Made by a program: the position numbers and the translations under genes
The notes under the pieces: generated by a model
What the model was told of the DNA's origin: nothing
Database searches by the model: none
The model's input: only the letters and a program-made list of their open reading frames with translations
Origin: a bacterium
GTDB lineage: Bacteria; Zhuqueibacterota; Zhuqueibacteria; Residuimicrobiales; Krinioviventaceae
DNA: 64,000 bases
NCBI GenBank assembly: GCA_963693055.1
Contig: OY843751.1
Coordinates: forward strand, 4,672,001-4,736,000
Direction: 5' to 3'
Shown: positions 4,223 through 25,821 of the stretch, one piece after another
Layout: the number at the start of each line of letters is the position of its first letter
Position numbering within the stretch: position 1 is the stretch's first letter

Positions 4223-5392
4223 TTATTTATTCCCTTTTGCTCTATTGTGCGTTTTACATAACATTTGACAGTTATTAATATCTGTTGCTCCGCCTTTACT
4301 CCACGCTGTGACATGGTCTGCATCCATTTCACTGAGTTTCCAAATTTTTGTTTTGTTAGAGTCGTGTCCAATTGCACATAAAGGACAGTTCGAAATACTA
4401 TCTTCTTCTGCTTCTGATGTTTGTTTCTTATAAATAGTTTTTTTTGTAGCCTCGTCAAAAACTCTAACTTCTAAAAGCTTTGTATCTGTTGAGCCACCAA
4501 GTATATATTCAAAGACCCCTTTCCGATTCTTAATATAAGGGTCTCCATAAAGTTCATTTACCTGCTCTGACACTTTTTTAGCATTATACGATTTTTTGTG
4601 GTATTCTTCATAAAGACGACCCCATTCAAGCCCTTTCATTTCAGATTCAACGTCTGTAAATACAGTTGAAACCCAGTCAATAACGCAATTGAAATATGTT
4701 TTTAGTTCATTAATATTGGTATCATGACGATGACGGCTCATATATCCCCCAATATTACCTTTGCTTACCCAATCAAATGCACGTTCCAAAAAATCTTGAC
4801 GGTTAGCACTGCCTTTTATATATGCACTCCATTTTTGAATGTTAGCGTTTTGAGAATTACTAAATTCCTCTTTTGCCAAAGTAACAAATTGACCAGAATA
4901 AACAGCATTTAGCAATTCTTGATTGCTTAGCGGAACCCCTGCAATATTGATTGTTTTAAACCATTCTTTAATCTCACTTTCAGTTCCCTCGCACTCATAG
5001 ATAAGAAGTTTTGTATCTAAAATCTTATTCTTTTTATCTACTGCAAAACCACCGAATAATTGTTCATTACCGTTTTCATCTTTGATAGCAAATTTATTTG
5101 TAACGAAACGGCCAAAACTTGTAATGCGTTGTTGGCCATCAAGAACCTCCAATTTATCATCACTAACTTTATTAAAATATATCAATCCAATAGGATAACC
5201 TTTCAGTATTGACTCAATAACGGCAATCTCCCTTTTACCACCATCGGAAGCATAAATGTAATTTCTTTGATATTCAGGTTGTATAGTTAGTTTTCCCGCA
5301 AGTCCAAATAATCCTTTACCTTCAAGTTCATTATAGACAAAGCCTTCACAAATATCTTTTACTGTAATGTCCGTTATTAATGTCGTTATCAT
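4223..5392 (-). CDS. DUF262 (ParB-like/GmrS-like) + HNH endonuclease, putative restriction endonuclease
   Basis: QPEYQRNY and LDGQQRITS (DUF262); C-terminal CPLC...DADHVTAWSKGG...NCQMLCKTHNRAKG (HNH); directly downstream of a methyltransferase. Confidence 0.85.
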   Translation of the reverse strand: MITTLITDITVKDICEGFVYNELEGKGLFGLAGKLTIQPEYQRNYIYASDGGKREIAVIESILKGYPIGLIYFNKVSDDKLEVLDGQQRITSFGRFVTNKFAIKDENGNEQLFGGFAVDKKNKILDTKLLIYECEGTESEIKEWFKTINIAGVPLSNQELLNAVYSGQFVTLAKEEFSNSQNANIQKWSAYIKGSANRQDFLERAFDWVSKGNIGGYMSRHRHDTNINELKTYFNCVIDWVSTVFTDVESEMKGLEWGRLYEEYHKKSYNAKKVSEQVNELYGDPYIKNRKGVFEYILGGSTDTKLLEVRVFDEATKKTIYKKQTSEAEEDSISNCPLCAIGHDSNKTKIWKLSEMDADHVTAWSKGGATDINNCQMLCKTHNRAKGNK

Positions 5393-5396
5393 TTGC

Positions 5397-6524
5397 TTAC
5401 CTTTTCTTTATAAAAATTCGCTTGTATACTTTTTTGTTTTTTACATAGGGCTCGTTATGCTTCTTAAAATGTGGTAATTTATATTTTTCATCAACAACAC
5501 CGTTATCACTTGCACCAATTATTTCAAACTGTTCAGGATTGTATTTGTCTAAGAAAGTAATGGGTACACCCATCACACCGTCATAATCACTTGGTATAGC
5601 ATCTGTATAAGGAACCTCAATTGCATCATAATTATCATATTTTGTATACTCTTTTCCTTTAATATTCTTATGGGAGCTAAACCTAATATTATCATTCATA
5701 GTCATCAAAGGTAGTGGTTGGTGTCTTTTGCCGTGGTCTAAATTAGTGAACCAGAGACAATTGTTTGTAGCTACAATTCTATTTCCATCTTCATCAATAC
5801 GAGCTTCTGTTCCAAATAACTCGTATGTTTCCGGCACAATAAAACCAGAAATCCAGCGCCCCATTCCAGTTCCAAGCCACATCTTATTTTCTTTAATCAA
5901 AGGGAATACTTCTTTATATGTAATGGCATTAATATTTGCAATAATTAAAAATTTCTTCTCATATTCGACAAGTTGCCTTATATACTGGCGAAAAAGACTA
6001 AATGGTGGATTGGTAACTACAATATCGGATTGTTTCAATAATGATATAGCTTCATCACTTCGAAAATCACCATCCCCATTTAAAGGTGTCCATTCATTTT
6101 GCTTATTATGTTTTAACTGCAATGCTACATCTTTCAAGCTAAATTCGCCATCGCCATCAATATCCCCAACTGAATTAATTATAAATCTATTGGCTGTTAT
6201 CTTCGGACGTCCTTTTACTTTTATAAGGGTCGAGTCATCGCCAAATAATTTAATTTGCGTATTGGCAATAGGTGAAGGCTTATAACTGGTTGTAATAAGC
6301 TGTTTTAAACCAATTCGCTTAAAGTTTAAAACGAAATATCTAAAAAAATTACTTTCAAATGGATCATCACAGTTACAATAAACAACTTTACTTCGAAATA
6401 CATCAGGATTAAATTCAAGATAAGCTTCAATCTCTTTTTGGATATCATTATACTGTGTATAAAATTCATCACTTTTAGATCTTTTAGCTTTATGTAGTAA
6501 TTTGTTCGTTGCATTTCTTGCCAT
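5397..6524 (-). CDS. Adenine-specific DNA methyltransferase, EcoRI family
   Basis: DEFYTQ, VYCNCDDP..SNF, GDFRS.E, DIVVTNPPFSLFR (motif IV NPPF), YDNYDAIEVP and GVMGVPITFLDKYNPEQFEI. Confidence 0.9.
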   Translation of the reverse strand: MARNATNKLLHKAKRSKSDEFYTQYNDIQKEIEAYLEFNPDVFRSKVVYCNCDDPFESNFFRYFVLNFKRIGLKQLITTSYKPSPIANTQIKLFGDDSTLIKVKGRPKITANRFIINSVGDIDGDGEFSLKDVALQLKHNKQNEWTPLNGDGDFRSDEAISLLKQSDIVVTNPPFSLFRQYIRQLVEYEKKFLIIANINAITYKEVFPLIKENKMWLGTGMGRWISGFIVPETYELFGTEARIDEDGNRIVATNNCLWFTNLDHGKRHQPLPLMTMNDNIRFSSHKNIKGKEYTKYDNYDAIEVPYTDAIPSDYDGVMGVPITFLDKYNPEQFEIIGASDNGVVDEKYKLPHFKKHNEPYVKNKKVYKRIFIKKR

Positions 6525-7554
6525 GAAATTAAATATCCTTATTTAAATCTAAATTTTACATTTGTAAAAATCAGTTTTCAATTTTGCACTATCGACTCTT
6601 ACACTTACCACTTATAGACGTATATTATCATTGTGCTTATACTGCCATAATAGATGTACAACAATAATTATTTATATATTTCTTTTATCAATTCTGTTTT
6701 AATACTCATACATATGAATAACATTCAACATGTTTGACAACCAACTATATAATGCAAAAACTTGTCGTATAACAAAAATATACAAAGCATGTCAAGCTTT
6801 TAAAAATCAGAATTTTATCATTAAAAAATATGCTGTTGCTTTTATGTTATATGACTTTTATAACATAAAAGCATTTTATTATAATATTGCGCCACTAGGA
6901 TTGTGAATATCTTTATCGTCATAGTTAGATACATAAGAATAGATCGTCGTACGTAAAAATGATTTCCACCAAAAGCCCCATATAATTATATTTTAAAAAA
7001 TAATTAATGAATTTCCATAAAAATATGCAACTAAAAAGTGCCCTAGTTCTTAAAAAATGACGATTAAATAATTTATACACCCTTTGTTATCAACTTACCT
7101 TGCGAAACCAACCCCCAATATTCCCAATCGCTTCGCTGAACTCATTTCCCCAACGGTGCCAAATTTAATAAGAGATGATCAATTCACGACATACCAGAGC
7201 GACTTTTTCATCGAATACCTTTGCCTACACAAAATCGCCGTTTTTTTAACTGGCTCCGTAACTCACATGATCTTCCTTATGCTGTCTAATAGTCCGTAAA
7301 GTCGTCTACTTCAAATGCCGCTTGCTTCAAACTTTCTGTCAGGGATTGAAACATACATACGTAAACCATCCTCCCAAGGGAATCAAAACCCATGGAAAGA
7401 TTCTCCGTATCTCAAGGGGTTCAATTTTCTATTATCATCAGTGTAAATCCGTGGCTAATTTCCCATTCTTTTTTTGAGCCACAGATCTGCAAAGATCCTC
7501 ACGGATTGCTTGTAAAAGTCCTACCCGATCCCCTCATTCTCCGTCCCAAATTCG

Positions 7555-7830
7555 CAGACAGTGTAAAATTAGAAAACAATTTTGTTTTTGGAGTGCATCG
7601 CCTTTATGCGATGCGTCGGACCGAAGGTCCGATTTAAATCCGCCTGCATTTCAAATATTATAGATTCATTATTATGATGTAAATTCAATATTTTTATACA
7701 AATATAGTTGAGTAGAGGCCGTCTTTGACGGCCCGCTGTACATAAAGGTACAGCACTCCACGTCTTTGTCATTTCTCTAAGGATTAATTATATTTCCATT
7801 TTTTTAGTATTAATTTTTTTTCACAGTCTG
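7555..7830. mobile_element. 276-bp non-autonomous TIR-bounded insertion (MITE-like) interrupting a REP-like hairpin
   Basis: The ends cagacagtgtaaaa (7555-7568) and tttttcacagtctg (7817-7830) are 12/14 inverted repeats. The flanks tctccgtcccaaatt and ttgatttgggacgga are the two halves of the hairpin that is intact at 3942-3970. No transposase is present. Confidence 0.65.
7588..7761. repeat. Inverted pair of GTAG/GTGG-type REP-like elements (7588-7633 and 7712-7761)
   Basis: ttggagtgc-atcgc-ctttat-gcgat-gc-gtcggacc-gaa-ggtccgat versus the reverse-complement copy gtggagtgc-tgtac-ctttat-gtaca-gc-gggccgtc-aaa-gacggcct: same scaffold, different stems that still pair. Confidence 0.7.
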
Positions 7831-7964
7831 TTGATTTGGGACGGAACTATGGTGCAAAGCTCTGCTTTGCAAATATCTATAAATTAAGGTATTGTGAACT
7901 GTGCAATTCTCTCCAGGCACAGCCTGGAGCCAACTTTCCTGCCCAAATCCAATTCGGGCAGGAG
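7831..7964. repeat. Multi-hairpin REP-like repeat, copy C (left end displaced to 7538-7552 by the insertion)
   Basis: Matches 3956-3998 exactly and aligns to the reverse complement of 2161-2290. Confidence 0.8.
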
Positions 7965-8028
7965 ATTTGTGAGCATTCAACAGTCATACAAGGATTGAGA
8001 ATCCTCGGGAAGATTTGCTATTAGACTC

Positions 8029-9027: not shown

Positions 9028-9224
9028 GGTTACCTCCTTGTTGACAAATCTATTACTTCTGAATCGCCAAATCTCAATATATTCAACCATGAATGTATGA
9101 AAATTATTCTATAGGAATGTATTTTCGGCAAGCGCCTGAATCTATATCGAGGCACATTACCTTAACCTGCCAAAGTCTTGATAAACAGTTAAAATAGTCA
9201 CATTATCCTCAAAAGGGAATACCA

Positions 9225-10934
9225 TCATTGTTTTCTTTGCTCATCTTTGATTCGCTCAATCATTTGTTTTCCATTTTCATTATCAGAATTCAATTCAATG
9301 GATTTCTTGTAATATAGCAATGAAAGATCATAGCGCCTGGTGTTATAAAAATATTCCGCATAACTATCCCAAACATTAAACGCATTCGGAAAAATCAATG
9401 TATTAACTTTGAAAACAGATCCTGCTCTTTCCAAATCACCTTTTTGCATCAAAACATAGCCTGCATTATTTATACTCTTTTCAAGCACCTTTTGATCAAA
9501 AATAGTAGACCACTCATAGTTTTTATATTTATCCTTCAAATGATGATAATACTCTAAAGCCGCACTGGCACCATTATCCGCTGCATAATCCGGAACGGAA
9601 ACCAACTCTGTACCATCAATAACCAATTCTAAAGCAGGATCATTACCCGAAAAGTAATCCTTACTTGAAAATGGAGCGGGAACATTGGGTTGAAAATATA
9701 TCGTTTGTGATGACCATGCATTATCTATTTGTCTCGATGCAATACCCAATCCGAACCCACTGTTAGGAAGATTTCCGACAAATTTCATATCACTAAAAAA
9801 ATTAAAAGGAGATGCCGAAGGCTCACCTATAAAAACAGCATTTGTATGTACTGCTAATTCGGTCATTAATATTACTGCTGCACTATATGTCCGATTACCA
9901 ATAAACACAAACACATTTTCTTTACCATTCAATTTATCTCTTTTAATAATTTGATTTATAAATGGTATTAACAGCCGACCATTCCCACCATCATTATAAC
10001 GTATATCCAGCACAAGTTTATCAATCTCATTTTCATGTAGATCAAAGTATGACCAAAAACGCTCAGAGAATTGAAAAAATGTTTCATTATTACCCGGTTG
10101 GTTAGCAACTTGGTTCAGTTGAAAATAAATAATTTTTTCATCAGACAAATGTTCAAACCAATAAAATTTCACATTCTTGTCTTGTTTTCTTAAATGAAGG
10201 GGAGTTGCTTTACCTAGAATTGTAGCCGCATGAACATATTCTCCCTCTGTAGGCCCCATATTTAACCTGTTAGACCAGGTGATTTTGCTGTTATCATGTA
10301 TTGATTTTAATGTAAGACTTTTTCGTTCACCATCTCTTGTCATTAAATCCAAACGTATTCTTTCTAAATTATCTCCTAATCCTAATCCATTCAATACTCT
10401 GGCAAATGTAATTCCCCGAAGCGCCGGACTTTTCCTACCGAACTTGGAATCCAAATTCGTAACACTTTCAAGAACAGACGTCACCTCTTCTATAGATTGG
10501 CCATTCACATTAATAACACGGGAACCCAAATATTGCTCATGTTCTTTATCGATGACTGTTATAAAAACACCATCTGAAAAATGGGCCAACCTAAAAGGGA
10601 ACCTTAAATCAGTTAAATCTAAAAACCCTTGATCAAAAAGTTGTGTATGCCCATCTTGAATGCTTGCAATAACTTTTTTAATTGAATAAAAAGCCCCCAA
10701 ATCCGATTCTGCAGCTTTTATTTCATTCACAGCCTGTTCAACAATAGAATTAAAATCATCTCGGGTTACTCTATAATATAGATTAGGATGATGTAATTTC
10801 AGATTTGATACTACAAAATCAAGATCATTTAACCACTGCTCAGTTGTAAATGCTTTTCCTGTTGTTGCAAAAACCTGAGATATAATACCAAAAACAAGAA
10901 TCAAAGAAATTTTCAAGATCTTCATAATTAACAA
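9225..10934 (-). CDS. Exported S41-like (tail-specific) peptidase-domain protein with C-terminal TPR
   Basis: Signal peptide; DGHT, LVLDIRYNDGGN, TYSAA and FIGEP motifs; TPR-like C-terminus (INNAGYVL...NVWDSYAE...KKSIELN). Confidence 0.7.
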   Translation of the reverse strand: MLIMKILKISLILVFGIISQVFATTGKAFTTEQWLNDLDFVVSNLKLHHPNLYYRVTRDDFNSIVEQAVNEIKAAESDLGAFYSIKKVIASIQDGHTQLFDQGFLDLTDLRFPFRLAHFSDGVFITVIDKEHEQYLGSRVINVNGQSIEEVTSVLESVTNLDSKFGRKSPALRGITFARVLNGLGLGDNLERIRLDLMTRDGERKSLTLKSIHDNSKITWSNRLNMGPTEGEYVHAATILGKATPLHLRKQDKNVKFYWFEHLSDEKIIYFQLNQVANQPGNNETFFQFSERFWSYFDLHENEIDKLVLDIRYNDGGNGRLLIPFINQIIKRDKLNGKENVFVFIGNRTYSAAVILMTELAVHTNAVFIGEPSASPFNFFSDMKFVGNLPNSGFGLGIASRQIDNAWSSQTIYFQPNVPAPFSSKDYFSGNDPALELVIDGTELVSVPDYAADNGASAALEYYHHLKDKYKNYEWSTIFDQKVLEKSINNAGYVLMQKGDLERAGSVFKVNTLIFPNAFNVWDSYAEYFYNTRRYDLSLLYYKKSIELNSDNENGKQMIERIKDEQRKQ

Positions 10935-11197
10935 CCTAAACTTTATTTACACAAAATAAATTCAACCTGGTTAGTAAAAGAAATCCGGTGTATTAGTATA
11001 TTACTTTTTCAGTATTAAGACAATCTTTTTTAGGTAAAATTCACTACAATTGCTTGATCTAAATCAAATCAGTATATAATAATAAAATCCATTTACCAGA
11101 TCAGCTAATACTCACATTTGTGGAGATTTACTATCCCTGTTTGAATAGTGTCTCTCCTTAATCCAATTTAACAAAATTAATAAAAAATATTGGATCG

Positions 11198-11872
11198 TCA
11201 AAACCGGTAGCTCAACAAATCCATTTTAACGCCAGGGCCACCACAGGAATCACGGAAATAACCCACCTGGCCTATAGACACACTTTTCTCTGATTTGACG
11301 GGACCCAGATTGTAGGCAAGCATTGAAAATGCAGTTGGCAAGACATATGTTAAAACGACTCCCAAATTAGAATCTGCGGTTTCAAGCGCTACCATAGCAA
11401 TACCGGTCCCCAAAACAGAGCCGCCCAACGCCCATAGAAACGATCTGTTTTTCTTTGCAATCAATCCTGTAACATGTACGCCACCCGCTATTCCCAACGC
11501 GTAACCTGCAAAAACCGTAAGAAACAATCCTCCCACATCTGTATCCCGATTATTGATAAACTGATTGCCATCAATTGCCAATCCCGCTGCTACACCCAGG
11601 GCTCCCCCCAATTCTGCCATTAGTAACTGCACCACGTAATAGTCGGTTTCATATACAGGCTGCTTCATATCAGACAACCGCAAAGCATTCATCGAAACAC
11701 CCGGTTCTGAATTATACCGAAAAGTATTCATACGCATGTCGTTCTGAAGAGCATTGGAACGGGAAAAAAGATGATGACCGGATGAATTGTTTTGAATTTG
11801 TGCAGAGACTAACGAGCTGATCATAAACAGCAACACCAACATCACTTGTCCAAAAACTATTTCTTTTCTCAT
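11198..11872 (-). CDS. Exported glycine-zipper membrane protein, paralog array member 7
   Basis: Signal peptide; Gly-rich hydrophobic segments; C-terminus GQVGYFRDSCGGPGVKMDLLSYRF shared with neighbours. Confidence 0.85.
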   Translation of the reverse strand: MRKEIVFGQVMLVLLFMISSLVSAQIQNNSSGHHLFSRSNALQNDMRMNTFRYNSEPGVSMNALRLSDMKQPVYETDYYVVQLLMAELGGALGVAAGLAIDGNQFINNRDTDVGGLFLTVFAGYALGIAGGVHVTGLIAKKNRSFLWALGGSVLGTGIAMVALETADSNLGVVLTYVLPTAFSMLAYNLGPVKSEKSVSIGQVGYFRDSCGGPGVKMDLLSYRF

Positions 11873-11895
11873 AACTTATTCCCTCACAAAAAACA

Positions 11896-12606
11896 TTAAA
11901 ACCGATAGTTTAACAAATCCATTTTAACACCAAGGCCGCCGCAGGCATCTTGATAATAGCCAAGCTGTCCCACAGAGATTTCTTTTTTACTTCTGTTATA
12001 ATCTAAATTCGAACTTGAATTATAATAGAGCATTGAAATAGCAGGCGGTAAACCAAATGCCGCAATGAATCCCATAGCGTTCGAATCAAAATCACCTCCC
12101 AGTGAAGCGAGGGTTAATCCAATTCCCGCACCTACTCCAAACATTGTTCCAACCAAAGCACGCCAATAGGAACCATCATCAATTCTATCTTTACCAACCT
12201 TATTCACACCTATTGGTACAGCAAAAAGATATCCAACATAAGCACCCACAATGGAATAACCCAATGCTTCCAAACCACCATCTCCAGCTAGCCCTAAAAC
12301 TAAAAAACCGGTACCTCCAGCAAGTATACCCAGCGCACCACAAACTTGAGACGTAATGAATTGCTCCACATAATAATCAACAGTTAAATTATGATTCTCA
12401 AACGTCTTTGAGCTATTCAATGGATTAGAGTTCAAGTTAGTACAATATCGATCCAAATGAAATGTATTTCCTCCCTGGTAATTATAGGGAATTAACCTTA
12501 CAGAAGGATCACCGCACTCGGCAGACTCTTTCCCCAATAATGTTGCACTCGTGTTCAATAATAAACAAAACATTACAATCCTAAAACCATAATAATCCAT
12601 ATCCAC
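11896..12606 (-). CDS. Exported glycine-zipper membrane protein, paralog array member 6
   Basis: RLIPYNYQG motif; C-terminus GQLGYYQDACGGLGVKMDLLNYRF. Confidence 0.85.
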   Translation of the reverse strand: MDMDYYGFRIVMFCLLLNTSATLLGKESAECGDPSVRLIPYNYQGGNTFHLDRYCTNLNSNPLNSSKTFENHNLTVDYYVEQFITSQVCGALGILAGGTGFLVLGLAGDGGLEALGYSIVGAYVGYLFAVPIGVNKVGKDRIDDGSYWRALVGTMFGVGAGIGLTLASLGGDFDSNAMGFIAAFGLPPAISMLYYNSSSNLDYNRSKKEISVGQLGYYQDACGGLGVKMDLLNYRF

Positions 12607-12712
12607 CTCTCAAAATAACCGTATCCACATGTATTCATCTAACTTTTTTGTTTTCCCAAAATTATCGGGCTACCCTTTTCAAAAATTGATCATCCCTCCA
12701 AAAGTAACCAGA

Positions 12713-13408
12713 TCAAAACCTGTAACTCAACAAATCCATTTTAACACCGAGGCCTCCGCAGGCATCCTGATAATAGCCAAGCTGTCCCACAGAGATTTCT
12801 GGGGAATGATCAGTCTCTTTCAACTCTTTGTGATCTTGGGGTTTTGTTTTTTTATTATACATAGCCATTGAACAAATTGGGGGTAACAAAAAACCAGCTG
12901 TGATACTCAAAGTTGAATTACCGGGATTTGAATCCGTTTCCAATGCTAAAACACCAATTGCTATTGCTGTGCCTAATAGGGAACCCAACAATGCACGTTT
13001 GTAAGATCCGTTTTGCCCAAATGCTTCACCTATACCATATGATCCCAATGAAACTCCCATAGCAAACCCTGCATAAGTAGACAGCACTCCTCCGGCCATC
13101 GAACCGTCAAGAATATTAAAACCTATTAATGCTCCTGCAAATAAACCCAAACACCCCGATACTTCGGCTATAATAAATTGTCCAGCCAAATAATAACCAT
13201 CATAAAAATCTATATTTGTTGCTACAGCAGATTCACGATCATTTAATTGTGGAGATTGATATTGACACAGATTTACCGACCTCTCACCCTGATAATTGTA
13301 TGGTACCAACCGGGGAGTGTTATCGGATTTGCTTTCGGGTTCCTGTGCGTAAACCGTAAAAGAGAATGCCGTGCAGATAGTGACAAGAAACAAAAAGCGG
13401 TTTTTCAA
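12713..13408 (-). CDS. Exported glycine-zipper membrane protein, paralog array member 5
   Basis: TTG start after AAGGAG; signal peptide ..VYA-QE; RLVPYNYQG; C-terminus GQLGYYQDACGGLGVKMDLLSYRF. Confidence 0.85.
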   Translation of the reverse strand: MKNRFLFLVTICTAFSFTVYAQEPESKSDNTPRLVPYNYQGERSVNLCQYQSPQLNDRESAVATNIDFYDGYYLAGQFIIAEVSGCLGLFAGALIGFNILDGSMAGGVLSTYAGFAMGVSLGSYGIGEAFGQNGSYKRALLGSLLGTAIAIGVLALETDSNPGNSTLSITAGFLLPPICSMAMYNKKTKPQDHKELKETDHSPEISVGQLGYYQDACGGLGVKMDLLSYRF

Positions 13409-13647
13409 AATATGTCTCCTTGATAGAATTATAACCCAAACAGGAATTTCCCCATGCGTTTTTTATTTTAGTTTTTTAATCTGTAATGTATGTATGTACG
13501 AATGGATATGCTCAATGTTCCATTTTGAAACCGCGCAAATCCTGCTAAAGGCCGGGAGTACTTTTGAGAGTTCAACACTAGAAAAAAACAGCATTCAATC
13601 CTATCATCCTTAAATCCTATGAATCATAATTCAGACAGGTAACCAGA
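13409..13647. repeat. 239-bp intergenic direct repeat, copy 1
   Basis: About 8 mismatches (hand count) against 14356-14594, offset 947 bp. Confidence 0.95.
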
Positions 13648-14355
13648 TCAAAACCTGTAACTCAACACATCCATTTTAACACCGAGGCCTCCGCAGGCAT
13701 CCTGATAATAGCCAAGCTGCCCCACAGTGATTTCAGGGGATAAATCAGTCTCTTTGAATTTATTGGGATATTTGGGTTTAAATTTTCTGTTATAATTTAT
13801 CATGGAACAGATTGTGGGCATAAGAAGCAATGCAGGACCTGTAAATACCGGAGTCTTGCTGTCTTTTTCTATTGCTGCTATGGTCATTCCTATACATGCC
13901 CCAAATAAAGAACCTTTCAGTGCTCGCCAATATGTACCATTTTGTACCTGTTTATAACCTGTTCCGTGTACTCCAAAAGCAACCCCTAATGTATACGACG
14001 TATACCCCACAACGATTGCAGCAGCAAGTCCATCCCATCCCTCTCTCCTGAACAAAGCTGGCCCCACGAGTACACCGGTTGTCATCCCAAGCCCACCTAC
14101 AAACTCTGCCATTAAAAATTGTTTAACAAAATATCCGACCGTAGCGCCTTGACCGGTTTCTGATAAAGGTTCGACAGAACCCTGTAAATTCAATGGACCG
14201 GGATTACACCAATACAAGTTGACAGTACTTTTGCCATGAAAATTATACGGAACCAGCCGGGGAGTATTATCGAATTTGCTTTCGGGTTCCTGTGCGTAAA
14301 CCGTAAAAGAAAATACCATACCAATACTAAGAAGAAACAACAAACTGTTTTTCAA
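13648..14355 (-). CDS. Exported glycine-zipper membrane protein, paralog array member 4
   Basis: N-terminus nearly identical to member 5 (FSFTVYAQEPESK.DNTPRLVPYN); C-terminus GQLGYYQDACGGLGVKMDVLSYRF. Confidence 0.85.
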   Translation of the reverse strand: MKNSLLFLLSIGMVFSFTVYAQEPESKFDNTPRLVPYNFHGKSTVNLYWCNPGPLNLQGSVEPLSETGQGATVGYFVKQFLMAEFVGGLGMTTGVLVGPALFRREGWDGLAAAIVVGYTSYTLGVAFGVHGTGYKQVQNGTYWRALKGSLFGACIGMTIAAIEKDSKTPVFTGPALLLMPTICSMINYNRKFKPKYPNKFKETDLSPEITVGQLGYYQDACGGLGVKMDVLSYRF

Positions 14356-14594
14356 AATATATCTCCTTAATAGATTTATAACCCAAACAGGAATTTCCCC
14401 ATGCGTTTTTTATTTTAATTTTTTAATCTGTAATGTATGTATGTACGAATGGATATGATCAATGTTCCATTTTGAAACCGCGCAAATCCTGCTAAAGGCC
14501 GGGAGTACTTTTGAGAGTTCAACACTAGAAAAAAACAGCATTCAATCCTATCATCCTTAAATCCTATAAATCATAATTCAGACAGGAAACCACA
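14356..14594. repeat. 239-bp intergenic direct repeat, copy 2
   Basis: Near-identical to 13409-13647. Confidence 0.95.
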
Positions 14595-15290
14595 TCAAAA
14601 CCTGCAACTCAACAAATCAATCTTAACGCCAGGGCCGCCGCATGCATCCTGATAATACCCAAGCTGCCCTGTAGATATTTCTGGTCCATGGGATTTAGTG
14701 TTGCCTTTATTATATAATATCATTGAAAGCGGAATCGGCAGTAGAAACGTCAATGCCGCCCCCACATTGGCTACTTCTGAACCTTGGCCCGCGATAATGG
14801 CGCCCAGCCCAATACTGGTTCCAATTGCAGATCCCATCAAGGCGCGTAAAAACGGCAAATCCTTATTATTGATGATACCAACCACATGCACACCTGTTGC
14901 AACTCCCAGAGCATATCCCGCATAAGCAAATCCAACCAGCTTTACAAAATCACTGCCTTCTTCATCATCACTGAATTCAACCCCGCTAAAGTTCACTCCT
15001 GCTGCTGTCCCCAACGCTCCCCCCAATCCTGCTATTAAAAACTGTGATATTAAATACCCGCCTTCTGGTGGTTTGCTATTTTTTACGGATATATTATCTG
15101 AATAACTGAATAAAATCGAATTCGCATGATACCGGTTTAAATCCACTCCCATATCCTTTTGCTGAATAAAGGGAATAATTCGGGCTGCATTTTCAAATGT
15201 AATACCTAAACCCGGATCGGTCGCATACACTGCCTGCGCAAATAAAAGACATACCATTAACACACTGCTAAAGCCTAATTTTTTTTTCAT
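14595..15290 (-). CDS. Exported glycine-zipper membrane protein, paralog array member 3
   Basis: Signal peptide; QFLIAGLGGALG; C-terminus GQLGYYQDACGGPGVKIDLLSCRF. Confidence 0.85.
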   Translation of the reverse strand: MKKKLGFSSVLMVCLLFAQAVYATDPGLGITFENAARIIPFIQQKDMGVDLNRYHANSILFSYSDNISVKNSKPPEGGYLISQFLIAGLGGALGTAAGVNFSGVEFSDDEEGSDFVKLVGFAYAGYALGVATGVHVVGIINNKDLPFLRALMGSAIGTSIGLGAIIAGQGSEVANVGAALTFLLPIPLSMILYNKGNTKSHGPEISTGQLGYYQDACGGPGVKIDLLSCRF

Positions 15291-15377
15291 TCAAGCACCC
15301 CATTCCAGTTTGTAAACCCGGATTTATCCCCGGGAACCTAAAAAAATTCTATACCGATTACAAAGCAATTCCGACTA

Positions 15378-16085
15378 TTAAAATCTACAACTCAATAAAT
15401 TCATTTTAACGCCTGGTCCGCCACATGCATCCTGATAGCATCCAAACTGACCGGCAGATATTTCCACAGGACTGGTTTTATTCGCACTTGCAACAGAATC
15501 TCGTTTATTATAAAGCATTATGGAACATACAGGTGGCAGCAAAACAAGAGACGAAAGACTAATTACGGCCTGGGGCTTGTTATTATCCAATTGAGAGGCA
15601 ATGGCTATTGCCAATCCTGCTCCAATCAAAGACCCTTTTAGCGCCTTACCAAAAGAACTGGAGACATTTGCATAACTCCCAACCTTGTGCACACCAAAAG
15701 CCGAACCCAAGGCATACCCGGCATAAGCACCGATCACGACAAATTCAATACCATCCATGTCTTCACTTTGGCCATCAACAAAAGGTATGCCGCAAATTCC
15801 CCCAACAAAGGACATGACTATACCATCAATTTCTGCAGACACAAATTGTTTAATATGCAATTTCGAATTTATTTTTTTTTGTTCTTTTTGATTAAATTTG
15901 GATAATGCACTTGCAGAGTCCTGTCCGGTATTCATACTATAGAGAACAGATTTATTCTCACCGCTGCTACAAAAAGATACCGGGAATAATTTCTCAACAG
16001 CCAGGATTTTTGAGGCAAACAACAGTATAAAAATCAACAAAAAACTTGAATGTATTAACCGAATGTTCAACATTTCCCCTCTCAA
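15378..16085 (-). CDS. Exported glycine-zipper membrane protein, paralog array member 2 (start may be the second Met, 16073)
   Basis: Signal peptide; QFVSAEIDG; C-terminus GQFGCYQDACGGPGVKMNLLSCRF. Confidence 0.8.
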   Translation of the reverse strand: MRGEMLNIRLIHSSFLLIFILLFASKILAVEKLFPVSFCSSGENKSVLYSMNTGQDSASALSKFNQKEQKKINSKLHIKQFVSAEIDGIVMSFVGGICGIPFVDGQSEDMDGIEFVVIGAYAGYALGSAFGVHKVGSYANVSSSFGKALKGSLIGAGLAIAIASQLDNNKPQAVISLSSLVLLPPVCSIMLYNKRDSVASANKTSPVEISAGQFGCYQDACGGPGVKMNLLSCRF

Positions 16086-16114
16086 ATATTAATAATCGCA
16101 ATAGACAATCAGCT

Positions 16115-16870
16115 CTAAAATTGCCAGCTAAAAACATTCACATTTACAACATTACCCCTCTTTTCATCATGAGAATAGTTGAACGCATTCAGGGATAATC
16201 CTACATTCCCGCCATCAATGCTCACAACCGAATCCAGATAATTCATATGGTTGGTAATATTATAACTTGCTATAGCGCCTATGGTTGGCAAAAAAAGTGT
16301 CAAGACCGAAATACGTCCCTCATCATTAAATTCTTCATCACTATCATCATAAGCATTTTCAATCATTATTCCTATCCCTGTTCCAATTACCGCGCTGGTC
16401 AACGTCCACCAAAACGATCCGTCTCTGTCCGCCTTTTCACCGACCCTATACACACCATCCACAACCCCATATGTATAACCAGCGGATATAACATAATATC
16501 CGGTATCAGACAAATCCCAATCATTCCCCAATTGTGCAGCATATACAACCAGGGCACTTGCAAGCAGACACATTAGCCCTTCGGTTTCTGCCATTAGAAA
16601 CTGTAAACCATAATATTGAATTGAATTAAAAACACTGAGATCCTGGGCCCTGTATCCATCAGACACTGAATTGAGCTTAACATAGTCCAGACTATAGGTT
16701 TCATTACCCTGATAGTTAAAAGGAACCAAAACCGGACCATCGTCAATAGTCTTAATTTGACGGGTCATTGCAAATGTGTTTTTATTACTCTGTAAAAGGT
16801 CTTGCGCAAAAACCATTGAACAAAAAATCAGTGTTACTAAAACCCCGGCCCGTATTGATCTGAGATACAT
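16115..16870 (-). CDS. Exported glycine-zipper membrane protein, paralog array member 1 (most divergent)
   Basis: Signal peptide; LVPFNYQG, YYGLQFLMAE, DGSFWW.L...IG and LP.IG..SYN motifs; C-terminus VVNVNVFSWQF. Confidence 0.8.
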   Translation of the reverse strand: MYLRSIRAGVLVTLIFCSMVFAQDLLQSNKNTFAMTRQIKTIDDGPVLVPFNYQGNETYSLDYVKLNSVSDGYRAQDLSVFNSIQYYGLQFLMAETEGLMCLLASALVVYAAQLGNDWDLSDTGYYVISAGYTYGVVDGVYRVGEKADRDGSFWWTLTSAVIGTGIGIMIENAYDDSDEEFNDEGRISVLTLFLPTIGAIASYNITNHMNYLDSVVSIDGGNVGLSLNAFNYSHDEKRGNVVNVNVFSWQF

Positions 16871-21511: not shown

Positions 21512-21718
21512 ATGAACACACAAAATTCCACATATTCACTTTCTTTACCCTCAGCATTTGCTAACGGGCAGGAATCTGTATGCATGTGGAAAAATCTGAA
21601 TATTATATCCTCAATAGTCAACATACCAGGTATGCTTGTGCAACACCTGGTGGTCGTCGTCCCTGTTATTCTTCTTAACCTCTTGTCTGTGGGTGTGGTG
21701 GTTCGCGTCAGCGAATAA
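21512..21718 (+). CDS. Putative ILV attenuator leader peptide 1 (68 aa, Val-rich C-terminus)
   Basis: Ends MLVQHLVVVVPVILLNLLSVGVVVRVSE; aligns end to end with 23721-23930; sits directly upstream of ilvB. Confidence 0.7.
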   Translation: MNTQNSTYSLSLPSAFANGQESVCMWKNLNIISSIVNIPGMLVQHLVVVVPVILLNLLSVGVVVRVSE

Positions 21719-21817
21719 CAACCCGGTGCAAGAGGAAATCTCGTAATACATCCAAACATTTAACACAATGCTTTCAACCCATCCTCTGCACCGTAAGCAC
21801 AGGTATGACTAGTTTTG
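21679..21817 (+). promoter_or_regulatory. Putative transcription attenuator 1 (alternative 1:2, 2:3 and 3:4 pairings)
   Basis: cctcttg (21679-21685) and tcctctgcaccg (21782-21793) are both complementary to cggtgcaagagga (21724-21736). An imperfect 3:4 hairpin with a short U-run follows. Confidence 0.6.
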
Positions 21818-21872
21818 AATTATTCCAGGCATGTTCGAATTGGCATAATAACTCGTAAACGAAAGGATAGTT

Positions 21873-23594
21873 ATGACTGGTGCAGAAATGATTTTACATG
21901 CTTTAAAAAAAGAAGGCGTAAACGCGGTTTTCGGTTATCCGGGAGCCTCGGTAATCGACATTTTTGATTTACTGTATGAAGGAGAAATCCCGTTTTATCT
22001 GGTCAGACATGAACAGGGCGCGGTACACGCGGCAGACGGTTTTGCCCGCGCATCCGGCAAAGTGGGAGTTTGTCTGGCTACTTCCGGACCCGGTGCTACC
22101 AACCTGGTAACCGGTCTGGCTACAGCTCATATGGATTCTATCCCCATGGTTGCCATTACCGGGCAGGTAGCCACCCACCTGATAGGAAACGATGCGTTTC
22201 AGGAAGTCGACATGGTGGGTATCAGCAGACCCATTACCAAGCACAACTATTTGGTTAATTCAGTAAAAGACTTGCCCAAAATTTTAAAACAGGCTTTTCA
22301 TATTGCACGTAGCGGCAGGCCCGGTCCGGTTTTAATTGACATTCCCAAAGATCTTCAACGAATGGAATGTACCGTTCCCTATCCGGATAAAGTAGAAATC
22401 TCCAGCTACAAGCCAACCTTAAAAGGCCATACGCAGCAGCTTAAAAAAGCGATAACATTAATCGAACGCAGTAAAAAACCGGTCATTTACGCGGGCGGTG
22501 GCGTTATTGCCAGCGAAGCAAGCAGCGAACTGCGGACCTTTGCTGAAAAGATCAATGCTCCTGTTACAACAACCTTGATGGGATTAGGGATTTACGATGA
22601 AACCGCACCCAACGCACTAAAAATGCTGGGTATGCACGGTACCGAATATGCCAATTACTCTATTCAGGCATGCGATTTGTTAATTGCAGTTGGTGCTCGG
22701 TTTGATGACAGGGTAACCGGAAAAGTTGATAAATTTGCACCCAATGCCAAAATCATTCATATTGATATCGATCCCACAACCATCCGTAAAAACGTTCAGG
22801 TAAATATACCTATTGTTGGAGATGTAAAACATGTTCTGGCAGATCTGGTAGAAATGATTGAGCAACAAGATAAAGCAGAATGGATTTCACAGGTGCGGGA
22901 ATGGAAAGAAAAGCATCCCCTGACATTTAAAAACGATGGTTTTATTCAACCCCAATTTGTGATCGAAAAAATCGCAGAAATGACAGACCATAAAGCAATT
23001 ATTACTACCGAAGTGGGGCAGAACCAGATGTGGAGTGCACAGTTTTTCAATTTCAAACATCCGCGAACCTTTTTATCATCCGGCGGCCTGGGAACCATGG
23101 GCTATGGATTCCCCGCAGCTATTGGTGCCCAAATTGCCCACCCGGATAAAGTTGTGATTGATATTGCAGGCGACGGCAGCATTCAAATGAACATACAGGA
23201 ACTGGCAACAGCTGTTTTGTACCAAATACCCGTCAAGATTGTAATCCTTAACAATCGTTCCTTGGGCATGGTAAGACAATGGCAGGCCATATTCTATGAC
23301 AAACGATTTGCTTCAACCTGTATGCGCCGAAATGCCCAATGTCCACCGCAGTGTGAACAAACTGAAGAATTTTGCCCTACCGAATATGTGCCCAATTTCG
23401 TCAAACTGGCAAAAGCCTATGGTGCAACCGGTTTTTACGCGGACAAAGTTGAGGATGTAGTACCCACTTTGGGAAAAATGTTGAATACGCCGGGTCCTGT
23501 TGTTGTTGAATTCAAGATAGAAGCAGAAGAAAATGTTTACCCCATGGTGCCGGCTGGCGCACCTATTCATGAAATGATAAGAGGCATGGCATAA
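21873..23594 (+). CDS. ilvB: Acetolactate synthase large subunit, copy 1
   Basis: FGYPG, RHEQGAVHAADG, TSGPGATN, DAFQE, LGMHG, RFDDRVTG, ThDP motif GDGSIQMN...NN, GMVRQWQ. Confidence 0.97.
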   Translation: MTGAEMILHALKKEGVNAVFGYPGASVIDIFDLLYEGEIPFYLVRHEQGAVHAADGFARASGKVGVCLATSGPGATNLVTGLATAHMDSIPMVAITGQVATHLIGNDAFQEVDMVGISRPITKHNYLVNSVKDLPKILKQAFHIARSGRPGPVLIDIPKDLQRMECTVPYPDKVEISSYKPTLKGHTQQLKKAITLIERSKKPVIYAGGGVIASEASSELRTFAEKINAPVTTTLMGLGIYDETAPNALKMLGMHGTEYANYSIQACDLLIAVGARFDDRVTGKVDKFAPNAKIIHIDIDPTTIRKNVQVNIPIVGDVKHVLADLVEMIEQQDKAEWISQVREWKEKHPLTFKNDGFIQPQFVIEKIAEMTDHKAIITTEVGQNQMWSAQFFNFKHPRTFLSSGGLGTMGYGFPAAIGAQIAHPDKVVIDIAGDGSIQMNIQELATAVLYQIPVKIVILNNRSLGMVRQWQAIFYDKRFASTCMRRNAQCPPQCEQTEEFCPTEYVPNFVKLAKAYGATGFYADKVEDVVPTLGKMLNTPGPVVVEFKIEAEENVYPMVPAGAPIHEMIRGMA

Positions 23595-23658
23595 AAATAA
23601 AATATTTAAAATGATTGACGTTATTTATTTAAAAAACAAGACATAAAAATTTTTTTTA

Positions 23659-23686
23659 TTGACTTTATCAAATAATTAGTTATATT
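23659..23686 (+). promoter_or_regulatory. Putative sigma70 promoter of ilvB unit 2
   Basis: TTGACT-16 nt-TATATT in an AT-rich intergenic region. Confidence 0.5.
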
Positions 23687-23720
23687 TATTAATTCAATAG
23701 TATAATATTTAGAAAAATTC

Positions 23721-23930
23721 ATGAGCACACATACGGCCACAAAATCATATCCTTTTTCAAACCCGTTAGCAATAGCTTACGGTAGGGGAGCTGTGTGCGT
23801 ACGTAATACGAATCTGAATATTCTACCATCCTTGTTAGTAAACTTACCGGGTGTGATTGTGCGACGCCTGGTGGTCGTGCCCATCATTATTCTAAACCTC
23901 TTGCTAGTGCTAATTCGCCTAAGCGAATAA
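23721..23930 (+). CDS. Putative ILV attenuator leader peptide 2 (69 aa, Ile/Leu/Val-rich C-terminus)
   Basis: Ends VIVRRLVVVPIIILNLLLVLIRLSE with four CTA Leu codons; paralogous to leader 1. Confidence 0.72.
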   Translation: MSTHTATKSYPFSNPLAIAYGRGAVCVRNTNLNILPSLLVNLPGVIVRRLVVVPIIILNLLLVLIRLSE

Positions 23931-24060
23931 AATACATGGTGCAAGAGGAAGCCAAAAAAATTTAATACACTACACAAAGCCTAAACGACCCGGAAATCGG
24001 GAATATCCTCTGCACCATGAGACAAGGTGTTTTTTAAAATTTGATGAGGTATTTTTTTTT
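23897..24060 (+). promoter_or_regulatory. Putative transcription attenuator 2
   Basis: cctcttgc (23897-23904) and tcctctgcaccatg (24006-24019) are both complementary to catggtgcaagagga (23935-23949). Downstream are a gcacc/ggtgt stem with a U-tract and a second T9 run at 24052-24060. Confidence 0.62.
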
Positions 24061-24099
24061 GAGCAAAAAACAATACATACAACAAAAAAAAGGATTGTT

Positions 24100-25821
24100 A
24101 TGACTGGTGCAGAAATGATCGTTCACGCTTTAAAACAAGAGGGTGTACGTGCGTTATTCGGTTACCCGGGTGGTTCGGTAATCGATATCTTTGATGTATT
24201 GTACAATTCAGATCTTCCATTTTATCTTGTGCGGCATGAACAAGGTGCAGTCCACGCTGCAGACGGTTTTGCACGTGCATCCGGTGAAGTGGGTGTCTGC
24301 CTTGCAACTTCAGGACCGGGGGCCACAAACCTGGTGACAGGTTTAGCTACAGCTCATATGGACTCTATTCCGATGGTGGCAATAACAGGACAAGTTCATA
24401 CACATCTGATTGGTAACGATGCATTTCAAGAAGTAGACATTGTTGGCATCAGCAGACCCATTACAAAGCACAATTATCTGGTGAGTTCGGTTGATGAATT
24501 GCCTAAAATTTTGAAACAAGCATTTTATCTGGCCCGCACCGGCAGACCTGGTCCGGTATTGGTGGATATCCCCAAAGATATTCAACAAACCGAGTGCAAA
24601 GTCCCCTATCCGGATAAAGTAGAAATTCCAAGCTACAAGCCAACAATGAAGGGTCATTTGCAGCAGCTTAAAAAAGTTGCCAAAGCAATTGAACAGAGTA
24701 AACAACCCGTCATTTATGCAGGTGGTGGAGTTATAGCAAGCGAAGCAAGTAATGAACTCCGCACTTTTGCTAAAAAGATCAATGCTCCTGTAACTACAAC
24801 CCTTATGGGACTTGGAATTTATGACGAAACTGATGATGACGCATTAAAAATGCTGGGCATGCACGGTACGGAATATGCCAATTACTCTATTCAGGCATGC
24901 GATCTGTTAATTGCGGTTGGTGCTCGCTTTGATGACAGAGTTACCGGCAAAGTCGATAAATTCGCAGCCAATGCTACAATTATTCATATCGATATCGACC
25001 CTACAACTATTCGCAAAAACGTTCAGGTCAACATTCCCATTGTTGGTGATATTAAACATGTTCTTACTGATCTGAACGAGCTCATTGAACAGCAGGATAA
25101 AAAAGAATGGATGTCTCAGGTTCATGAATGGAAAGAAAAACATCCACTGGTTTACAAGAACGATGGACATATTCAGCCACAATATATCATTGAAAAACTG
25201 GCTGAAATGACTGATCACAATGCGGTTATCTCTACCGAAGTGGGTCAAAACCAGATGTGGGCGGCACAGTTTTATAATTATAAACATCCACGTACCTTTT
25301 TATCATCTGGTGGTTTGGGAACCATGGGTTACGGATTTCCCGCAGCCATTGGCGCCCAAGTTGCCCAGCCGGACAAGGTTGTTATTGACATTGCGGGTGA
25401 TGGCAGCATCCAGATGAACATACAGGAACTGGCTACCGCAGTATTGTATCAGATCCCCGTCAAGATTGTTATTCTCAATAATCGCTCACTCGGTATGGTG
25501 AGACAATGGCAGGGTATATTTTATGACAGACGCTTTTCATCTACATGCTTGCGGCGCAATGCCATGTGCCCGCCGCAATGTAAACAAACTGAGGAGTTCT
25601 GCCCGAACGAATACGTCCCAAATTTCGTCAAACTGGCAGAAGCCTATGGTGCAGCCGGACTTTATGCGGACAAAGTTGAGGATGTAGTACCCACTTTGAA
25701 AAAAATGCTGAATACTCCGGGCCCGGTTGTTGTTGAATTCAAGATAGAAGCTGAAGAAAATGTTTACCCCATGGTGCCGGCTGGTGCCCCAATCCATGAA
25801 ATGATAAGAGGAATGGCATAA
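24100..25821 (+). CDS. ilvB: Acetolactate synthase large subunit, copy 2
   Basis: Same motifs and same length (573 aa) as copy 1; stop overlaps the ilvN start. Confidence 0.97.
   Translation: MTGAEMIVHALKQEGVRALFGYPGGSVIDIFDVLYNSDLPFYLVRHEQGAVHAADGFARASGEVGVCLATSGPGATNLVTGLATAHMDSIPMVAITGQVHTHLIGNDAFQEVDIVGISRPITKHNYLVSSVDELPKILKQAFYLARTGRPGPVLVDIPKDIQQTECKVPYPDKVEIPSYKPTMKGHLQQLKKVAKAIEQSKQPVIYAGGGVIASEASNELRTFAKKINAPVTTTLMGLGIYDETDDDALKMLGMHGTEYANYSIQACDLLIAVGARFDDRVTGKVDKFAANATIIHIDIDPTTIRKNVQVNIPIVGDIKHVLTDLNELIEQQDKKEWMSQVHEWKEKHPLVYKNDGHIQPQYIIEKLAEMTDHNAVISTEVGQNQMWAAQFYNYKHPRTFLSSGGLGTMGYGFPAAIGAQVAQPDKVVIDIAGDGSIQMNIQELATAVLYQIPVKIVILNNRSLGMVRQWQGIFYDRRFSSTCLRRNAMCPPQCKQTEEFCPNEYVPNFVKLAEAYGAAGLYADKVEDVVPTLKKMLNTPGPVVVEFKIEAEENVYPMVPAGAPIHEMIRGMA

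Follow-up and report, generated by a model that had tools for sequence, protein, structure and literature searches.

How can the non-coding spacers of a tandem gene array be nearly identical when the genes between them are not? This question is raised by a 64,000-nucleotide stretch of contig OY843751.1 (assembly GCA_963693055.1, positions 4,672,001 to 4,736,000; hereafter the window) from a bacterium of the phylum Zhuqueibacterota. Its genome (G000) is 6.5 Mb in one contig. The array comprises seven same-strand open reading frames (ORFs) of 224-251 aa at window 11198-16870, and the encoded proteins align end to end. A previous sequence-only reading had interpreted the pattern as a cassette-exchange signature, to be explained by swapping of cores between conserved flanks, by homogenisation of the flanks through gene conversion, or by extreme diversifying selection on the cores. 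Comparison with a congeneric sister genome (G001) favours homogenisation. With a probability of roughly 0.8, the locus is an old array of tandem paralogs whose junctions have recently been homogenised within each species, likely by gene conversion or by cycles of duplication and deletion, while the cores have stayed fixed at their loci under purifying selection.

Conserved junctions and divergent cores

The genes are numbered g1 to g7 by window coordinate (the former members 4 and 5 are g4 and g3, respectively), and the features are as follows.

11198-11872, minus strand: g1, paralog of 224 aa, ortholog present in G001
11896-12606, minus strand: g2, paralog of 236 aa, not in G001
12713-13408, minus strand: g3, 231 aa
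13648-14355, minus strand: g4, 235 aa, for which a signal peptide, a body of four Gly-rich helices (residues 73-189) and a beta-hairpin (residues 214-228) are predicted
14595-15290, minus strand: g5, paralog of 231 aa; in G001 the extra gene gX sits between g4 and g5
15378-16085, minus strand: g6, paralog of 235 aa
16115-16870, minus strand: g7, 251 aa, the most divergent paralog and the first in the direction of transcription
13409-13647, unstranded: spacer copy 1, between g4 and g3, homogenised
14356-14594, unstranded: spacer copy 2, between g5 and g4, homogenised
13287-13722, unstranded: junction homology block copy 1 (g4 tail, spacer and first ~40 codons of g3)
14234-14669, unstranded: junction homology block copy 2 (g5 tail, spacer and first ~40 codons of g4)
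12704-12883, unstranded: g3 tail block; the g4 tail block at 13639-13818 matches it at 85% identity
12884-13286, minus strand: g3 locus-specific core, 96% identical to its ortholog and 47% to the g4 core
13819-14233, minus strand: g4 locus-specific core, 97% identical to its G001 ortholog, unusually close
13593-13641, unstranded: ~45-bp dispersed repeat in spacer 1, just behind the g4 stop
14540-14589, unstranded: ~45-bp dispersed repeat in spacer 2, just behind the g5 stop

The two spacers flanking g4, each 239 bp long, differ at 8 positions, as previously stated. At an offset of 947, 30-bp windows matched at 21-30 of 30 positions across 13290-13739 and at 4-15 of 30 elsewhere. The spacers form the centre of a longer ungapped block that runs from the tail of one gene through the spacer into ~40 codons of the following one; 398 of its 436 bases (91%) are identical between the copies, and the longest identical run measures 109 bp. 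The second block, shared by the g3 and g4 tails, covers 180 bp at 85% identity. Maximum chi-square analysis of g3 against g4 placed breakpoints at codons ~40 and ~193, neither of which was reached in any of 100 permutations. The cores had been described as impossible to align by eye; their nucleotide identity is indeed only 47% after codon alignment, but they do align as protein, with 40% identity between g3 and g4 in the helices and 19% in the linker. Linker and loop regions share 17-19% amino-acid identity between paralogs. The tails average 76% protein identity among g1-g6 versus 33% for the helices; constraint at the protein level is thus a second source of similarity in the tail.

An assembly artefact is a practically negligible explanation for the duplicated spacer, although no single listed contig bridges the whole stretch. 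In the Logan contigs of run X1, which is possibly the source sample of the assembly and hence not independent, the copy-specific spacer ends lie apart, on 125-bp contigs containing 0 other letters; a single contig carries the shared spacer middle at a depth of 10.3, versus 6.1-6.8 for the cores. These contigs make a false duplication unlikely. The independent genome G001 carries the same duplicated spacers in the same design with variants of its own, and these are matched by its own contigs: those of run X4 agree with G001 at every position (0 differences), both along gX and where g1 adjoins g3.

Locus-faithful cores and species-faithful spacers

A quartet consisting of g3 and g4 from both genomes was scored for sites that group the sequences by locus or by species. 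The core contained 192 locus-type and 0 species-type sites. In the spacer, 16 species-type and 0 locus-type sites were counted; with softer gap costs, 10 substitutions and 2 gap columns were species-type versus 0 locus-type. Separate trees of the segments gave the same division, with the core following the locus and the spacer following the species. With the core, the approximately unbiased (AU) test rejected the species tree at p = 2e-53; with the spacer it rejected the locus tree, at p values from 5e-6 to 2.4e-4 in three alignments. Spacer distances were 0.033 within G000 and 0.020 within G001, compared with 0.077-0.118 between the genomes. The proposed homogenisation of the flanks by gene conversion is supported by these sites and tests, and the argument derives from the shared species-specific sites rather than from the identity figure alone. 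Swapping of cores between positions was not seen, as the six shared cores stand in the same order in G000 and G001.

Differences in gene content between the two genomes

The gene order in G001 is g1, g3, g4, gX, g5, g6, g7; g2 is absent, and gX is an extra old paralog. Cassette exchange as originally conceived survives in this weaker form, in which whole genes are gained or lost at flank junctions (g2 only in G000, gX only in G001) and cores are not repositioned. In runs X4 and X5, the joint that lacks g2 (11908 -> 12726) falls inside the tail repeat, where 12 letters fit either side, and the end of the G001 g3 tail, read by eye, shows g2-type bases. Both observations fit a crossover between tails, which may explain the g2 difference. 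The G001 spacer between g4 and gX (L026:9683-9836) has lost ~85 bp including the dispersed repeat, and the part that is left is almost identical to the spacer next to it. Beside the array, G000 has ~2 kb at window 9125-11193 that G001 lacks at the orthologous position; this segment includes an S41-peptidase/TPR gene (9225-10934).

The orthologous array was found in one of the 41 genomes searched, the congener G001. A scan of the order (43 genomes) detected the array only in G000 and G001, six others having one match, and word-based homolog searches found only the same two genomes. The genome collection scan returned one locus only, that of G001, and among 107 pattern matches in the metagenome collection scan there was no relative.

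Age of the cores and alternative explanations

The proportion of differing synonymous sites (pS) was 0.67-0.71 between paralog cores and 0.705 for g3/g4, near synonymous saturation, versus 0.095 for the g3/g4 tails, so the duplication is an old one that occurred before the two species separated. In this respect the premise that it was recent is wrong, and only the junction DNA is young. The ratio of nonsynonymous to synonymous substitution (dN/dS) between orthologous cores was 0.17 for g1, 0.08 for g3, 0.55 for g4, 0.35 for g5, 0.28 for g6 and 0.30 for g7, with 0.06-0.12 for three flanking enzymes; judged by these ratios, the array cores are under relaxed but purifying selection and not diversifying selection. 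It is most improbable that the cores diverged fast by diversifying selection after a recent duplication. The high variability of linker and loop regions between paralogs would suit this explanation, as would the g4 ratio, which is that of a relaxed gene. Selection at the protein level, however, cannot cause near-saturation of synonymous sites, and with dN/dS below 1 in all six orthologous core pairs (0.08-0.55), the extreme diversifying selection proposed earlier is refuted at the level of whole cores.

Programmed variation, either by copying silent cassettes into an expression site or by shuffling of units through a site-specific recombinase, would suit a predicted surface family whose members have conserved ends and variable middles, and the dispersed repeat inside the spacers also speaks for it. 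Such a system is highly improbable here. All seven genes are full-length open frames with no truncated member, the gene order is unchanged between species, and the array contains no inverted repeats. The nearest of the 7 tyrosine recombinase (PF00589) matches in G000 lies ~314 kb away and the sole reverse transcriptase match ~237 kb away; no template copy homologous to the variable region was found elsewhere in G000. No joints appeared in the contigs of runs X1 and X3, although contigs drop rare variants. One copy has A at 6 of the 8 sites that distinguish the spacers, and a diversity-generating retroelement (DGR) was therefore considered; this reading was rejected because the sites lie in non-coding DNA, most of the changes are transitions, and no reverse transcriptase or template is linked. 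The reverse transcriptase match itself is at G000:C1:4446030-4446677, in a 386-aa frame. A constrained RNA or regulatory element in each spacer is likewise a very unlikely reason for their likeness. A promoter and a ribosome site are probably present in the spacer, and some intergenic regions are equally conserved between the species. Constraint nevertheless cannot yield species-specific changes common to both copies; the folding z-score is 0.25, Rfam gave 0 hits on the array, promoters and terminators are no more numerous than in shuffled sequence, and 85 bp are missing from one G001 spacer.

The ~45-bp repeat in the spacers is dispersed and mostly intergenic, with 45 nhmmer matches in G000. 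It is built of short imperfect tandem units with a fixed end, and some copies occur in inverted pairs (for example G000:C1:4267245-4267367). Several copies adjoin ORFs that we presume, from a motif, to be Rhs-like. No sign was seen that the repeat drives homogenisation, and the G001 spacer that lost it in the 85-bp deletion carries homogenised sites.

Unusually close central cores

The cores of g3, g4 and g5 are closer between the two genomes than expected. Differences at four-fold degenerate sites amounted to 3/73 in g4, 6/66 in g5 and 9/69 in g3, and to 12/66 in g1, 15/57 in g6 and 14/52 in g7. The background, 601 windows from 20 sampled stretches of G001, has a median four-fold divergence of 0.29, and two standalone homologs are normal (25/80 and 28/81); at these sites, the g4 core is ~7 times closer to its ortholog than the genome background. 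Values as low as that of g4 occurred in 2 of the 601 windows, in 0 of the 333 windows with at least 4% amino-acid change and, by a different measure that included the array locus, in 1 of 618. Against its ortholog, g4 shows sharp breakpoints at codons ~20 and ~203 (0 of 100 permutations for each), and its core differs from its flanks with a Fisher p of 9e-8. GC content at third codon positions (GC3) was rejected as the cause of the low core divergence.

The close cores suggest an exchange between the lineages once these had separated, involving either g3-g5 as one block or individual cores via their flanks. Tentatively, crossovers in the flanks are proposed to have carried the g4 core, or all of g3-g5, across the species boundary in addition to homogenisation. 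This would amount to true cassette exchange by horizontal transfer, a possibility compatible with the main explanation and held here with the same reserve. The low four-fold divergence of g4, g5 and g3 relative to g1, g6, g7 and the genome background, the sharp g4 breakpoints with the contrast between core and flanks, and the normal intergenic divergence of the spacers between the young cores (0.077 versus a median of 0.074) all speak for such an exchange. Conversion between paralogs, however, can also yield divergent g4 flanks; the G001 g4 tail carries g5-type bases, and the G000 g4 ends resemble gX. The values of g3 (35/601) and g5 (14/601) are low but lie inside the background tail. Introgression of the whole block, ordinary between close species, fits equally well, and with the array from two genomes there is no third lineage for comparison. 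More doubtful still is a wider proposal that the array acts as a passive, recombinase-free cassette exchanger between species, with a recent trade of the g4 core and with hairpin tails that let paralogs co-assemble in mixed membrane oligomers. If it were true, constant export and anchor flanks would let helical cores be added, dropped or traded horizontally one at a time.

A model of junction homogenisation

In the preferred explanation, homogenisation of an old array, the junction DNA (one gene's tail, the spacer and the signal-peptide region of the next gene) would have been made alike separately in each species. RecA-type gene conversion or duplication-deletion cycles are the likely agents, with general homologous recombination as the simplest candidate. 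Only the junctions, at 85-97% identity, would still pair for recombination, which the cores at ~45% identity presumably could not do. Changes in the shared export and anchor modules, namely the signal peptide and the beta-signal-like tail, would be tolerated, and each crossover between junctions would bring in or take out a single core.

Several points weigh against this explanation or limit its reach. The tail and N-terminal trees alone reject no topology by the AU test, even though g3/g4 tail identity is 95% versus 91% and 84% for the orthologs; on these alignments, conversion may be regarded as proven for the spacer, but for the coding flanks it is no more than a suggestion. By itself, a low spacer divergence is not unusual: the background intergenic divergence between the genomes has a median of 0.074 (65 of 106 regions mappable), and a divergence of no more than 3.4% is seen in 10 of these 65 orthologous regions. 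Gain and loss of g2 and gX cannot be polarised, because the array is known from two genomes only. Vertical descent alone does not explain the likeness of the g3-g5 cores between species. Finally, localisation and function of the proteins are predictions, and no fold match stood out.

The array provides a clean two-genome example in which a non-coding junction has been homogenised while the coding cores stay old and fixed, and it illustrates that conserved flanks around variable cores need not imply cassette switching. Should the young central cores reflect interspecies exchange, the locus would be a small system in which to test how cores are exchanged horizontally when no dedicated recombinase is involved.

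The predicted protein family

None of the seven array proteins had a Pfam or NCBIfam hit at cut-off. A profile search retrieved 554 representatives at E<=0.001, and a genome search found three further, more distant homologs elsewhere in G000. Ten clusters were looked up, of which three carry a name, in each case 'hypothetical protein'. The nearest Atlas clusters are unnamed, with Aminicenantota, Ignavibacteriota and Myxococcota as the commonest phyla, at a recognition score below the tool's reliable range. An AlphaFold2 model based on 119 sequences showed an N-terminal helix, a disordered linker, a four-helix body (73-189) of hydrophobic, glycine-rich helices, and a beta-hairpin (214-228), with a predicted local distance difference test score (pLDDT) of 87-98 over the four helices and 74-80 over the hairpin. 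A first fold from 7 sequences (pLDDT 46) and its Foldseek search were uninformative. With the better model, Foldseek returned nothing at E<=0.001, and the best VIA-align Z score of 7.8 (root-mean-square deviation 3.6, 116 aligned) is at the level common for helical bundles. A sequence search of the PDB was negative.

The tails of g1, g3 and g4 end in L-S-Y-R-F and the other tails in F; the last residue is F or W in 77 of 142 distant homologs, and 125 of the 142 pass a crude test of N-terminal hydrophobicity. The consensus of the beta-signal recognised by BAM, the beta-barrel assembly machinery, is L/V-G-L/V-G-Y-R/K-F, according to the part of the source available (bioRxiv 2022.04.13.488089), and the Y-R-F ends of g1, g3 and g4 are similar to it. 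The predicted model shows a C-terminal hairpin and not a full barrel. As predicted from these features, the array proteins are likely envelope proteins, probably of the outer membrane, with a shared tail and paralog-specific helical bodies. The array points to a widespread, unnamed envelope protein family without a clear structural match. No paper on the family, the array or the dispersed repeat was found in a search that left most subscription journals and supplements outside. One standalone homolog that lacks the beta tail (L027:4435-4990; G000:C1:53428-53976) has an in-frame stop in G000 and is intact, with 183 aa, in G001.

Other features of the window

The array is neighboured by genes for an aldo-keto reductase, an S41 peptidase and glycoside hydrolases. 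A low-GC pair at 4223-6524, encoding a GmrSD-N/HNH nuclease and an EcoRI-type adenine methylase, is likely a restriction-modification module. The non-coding region 7363-7968 contains a 29-bp inverted repeat (7540-7568 / 7817-7845), and parts of it match several places in the G001 locus L026; it is possibly a small mobile repeat. At 21607-25821 lie two tandem 573-aa ORFs, which we take to encode acetolactate synthase large subunits. They share 79% DNA identity over the first 300 bp, and a similar 66-bp leader-like repeat precedes each.

Comparison with known systems

Programmed systems of diversification differ from the array in their components. Antigenic variation of the vlsE, msp2 or pilS type uses truncated silent donors and one expression site with core turnover, whereas the array has seven full-length ORFs with cores fixed in position in two species. 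Integrons and shufflons have a linked tyrosine recombinase, and shufflons inverted sites, in contrast to the array with its nearest PF00589 match ~314 kb off and no inverted repeat; the repeats of the array also extend over coding DNA. DGRs pair a reverse transcriptase with a repeat that serves as template and is homologous to the variable region; here, the reverse transcriptase is ~237 kb off and G000 has no homologous template elsewhere. At the protein level, glycine-rich hydrophobic helices after a signal peptide resemble those of glycine-zipper proteins (PF05433, PF13488, PF13441). Among 119 family members, glycine-zipper Pfam models hit 4 and 1 weakly (PF05433: 4/119 at E<=0.001), PF05433 exceeded the cut-off in 0 of the 7 array proteins, and PF13441 occurred in 21% of the members of one Atlas cluster. 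In contrast to glycine-zipper 2TM proteins with their two helices, the array proteins are predicted to possess four, and in addition a beta-hairpin at the C-terminus.

Closer parallels exist among gene arrays shaped by homologous recombination. As described in the available part of one study (PMC9484751), Streptococcus tipC forms tandem paralogs with 5' and 3' homology blocks around a variable centre, the homology block of S. aureus esaG covers the gene end and the intergenic region, and recombination through such blocks alters gene number. The array matches this description in its 436-bp block at 91%, its 180-bp block at 85% and its core at 47%, in its incongruent core and spacer trees, and in whole members gained or lost at the blocks (g2 versus gX). 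It belongs to a different protein family, and in it the lineage-specific homogenisation of spacers is shown directly, two differences from tipC and esaG as that text presents them. No toxin is adjacent among the nine flanking window proteins examined with Pfam, unlike in immunity arrays of type VII secretion systems (T7SS) or of polymorphic toxins. For the S. aureus lpl, ssl and spl clusters, the accessible text of PMC2568036 describes reorganisation by homologous recombination at a conserved block. The ssl and spl recombination sites extend from the upstream region into the 5' gene end; in lpl the conserved block lies mid-gene and the unit spans two genes, and no within-strain homogenisation is found there in that text. 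On that account, the array is a mirror of lpl, with a conserved junction, a locus-specific core, the ORF centre least similar, and homogenisation present. In the outer-membrane paralogs babA/babB and homA/homB of Helicobacter pylori, the middle follows the locus from strain to strain and the terminal segment is most alike within a strain, according to the portion of PMC3960876 at hand. The array spacer is likewise closer within a genome than between orthologs. The bab genes, as portrayed there, occupy dispersed loci, form chimeras and have a known adhesin function, whereas the array is tandem and its clearest homogenised segment is intergenic. In kind, the array is like tipC and babA/babB: the process at work is a known route of gene-array evolution and not a programmed swapping system.

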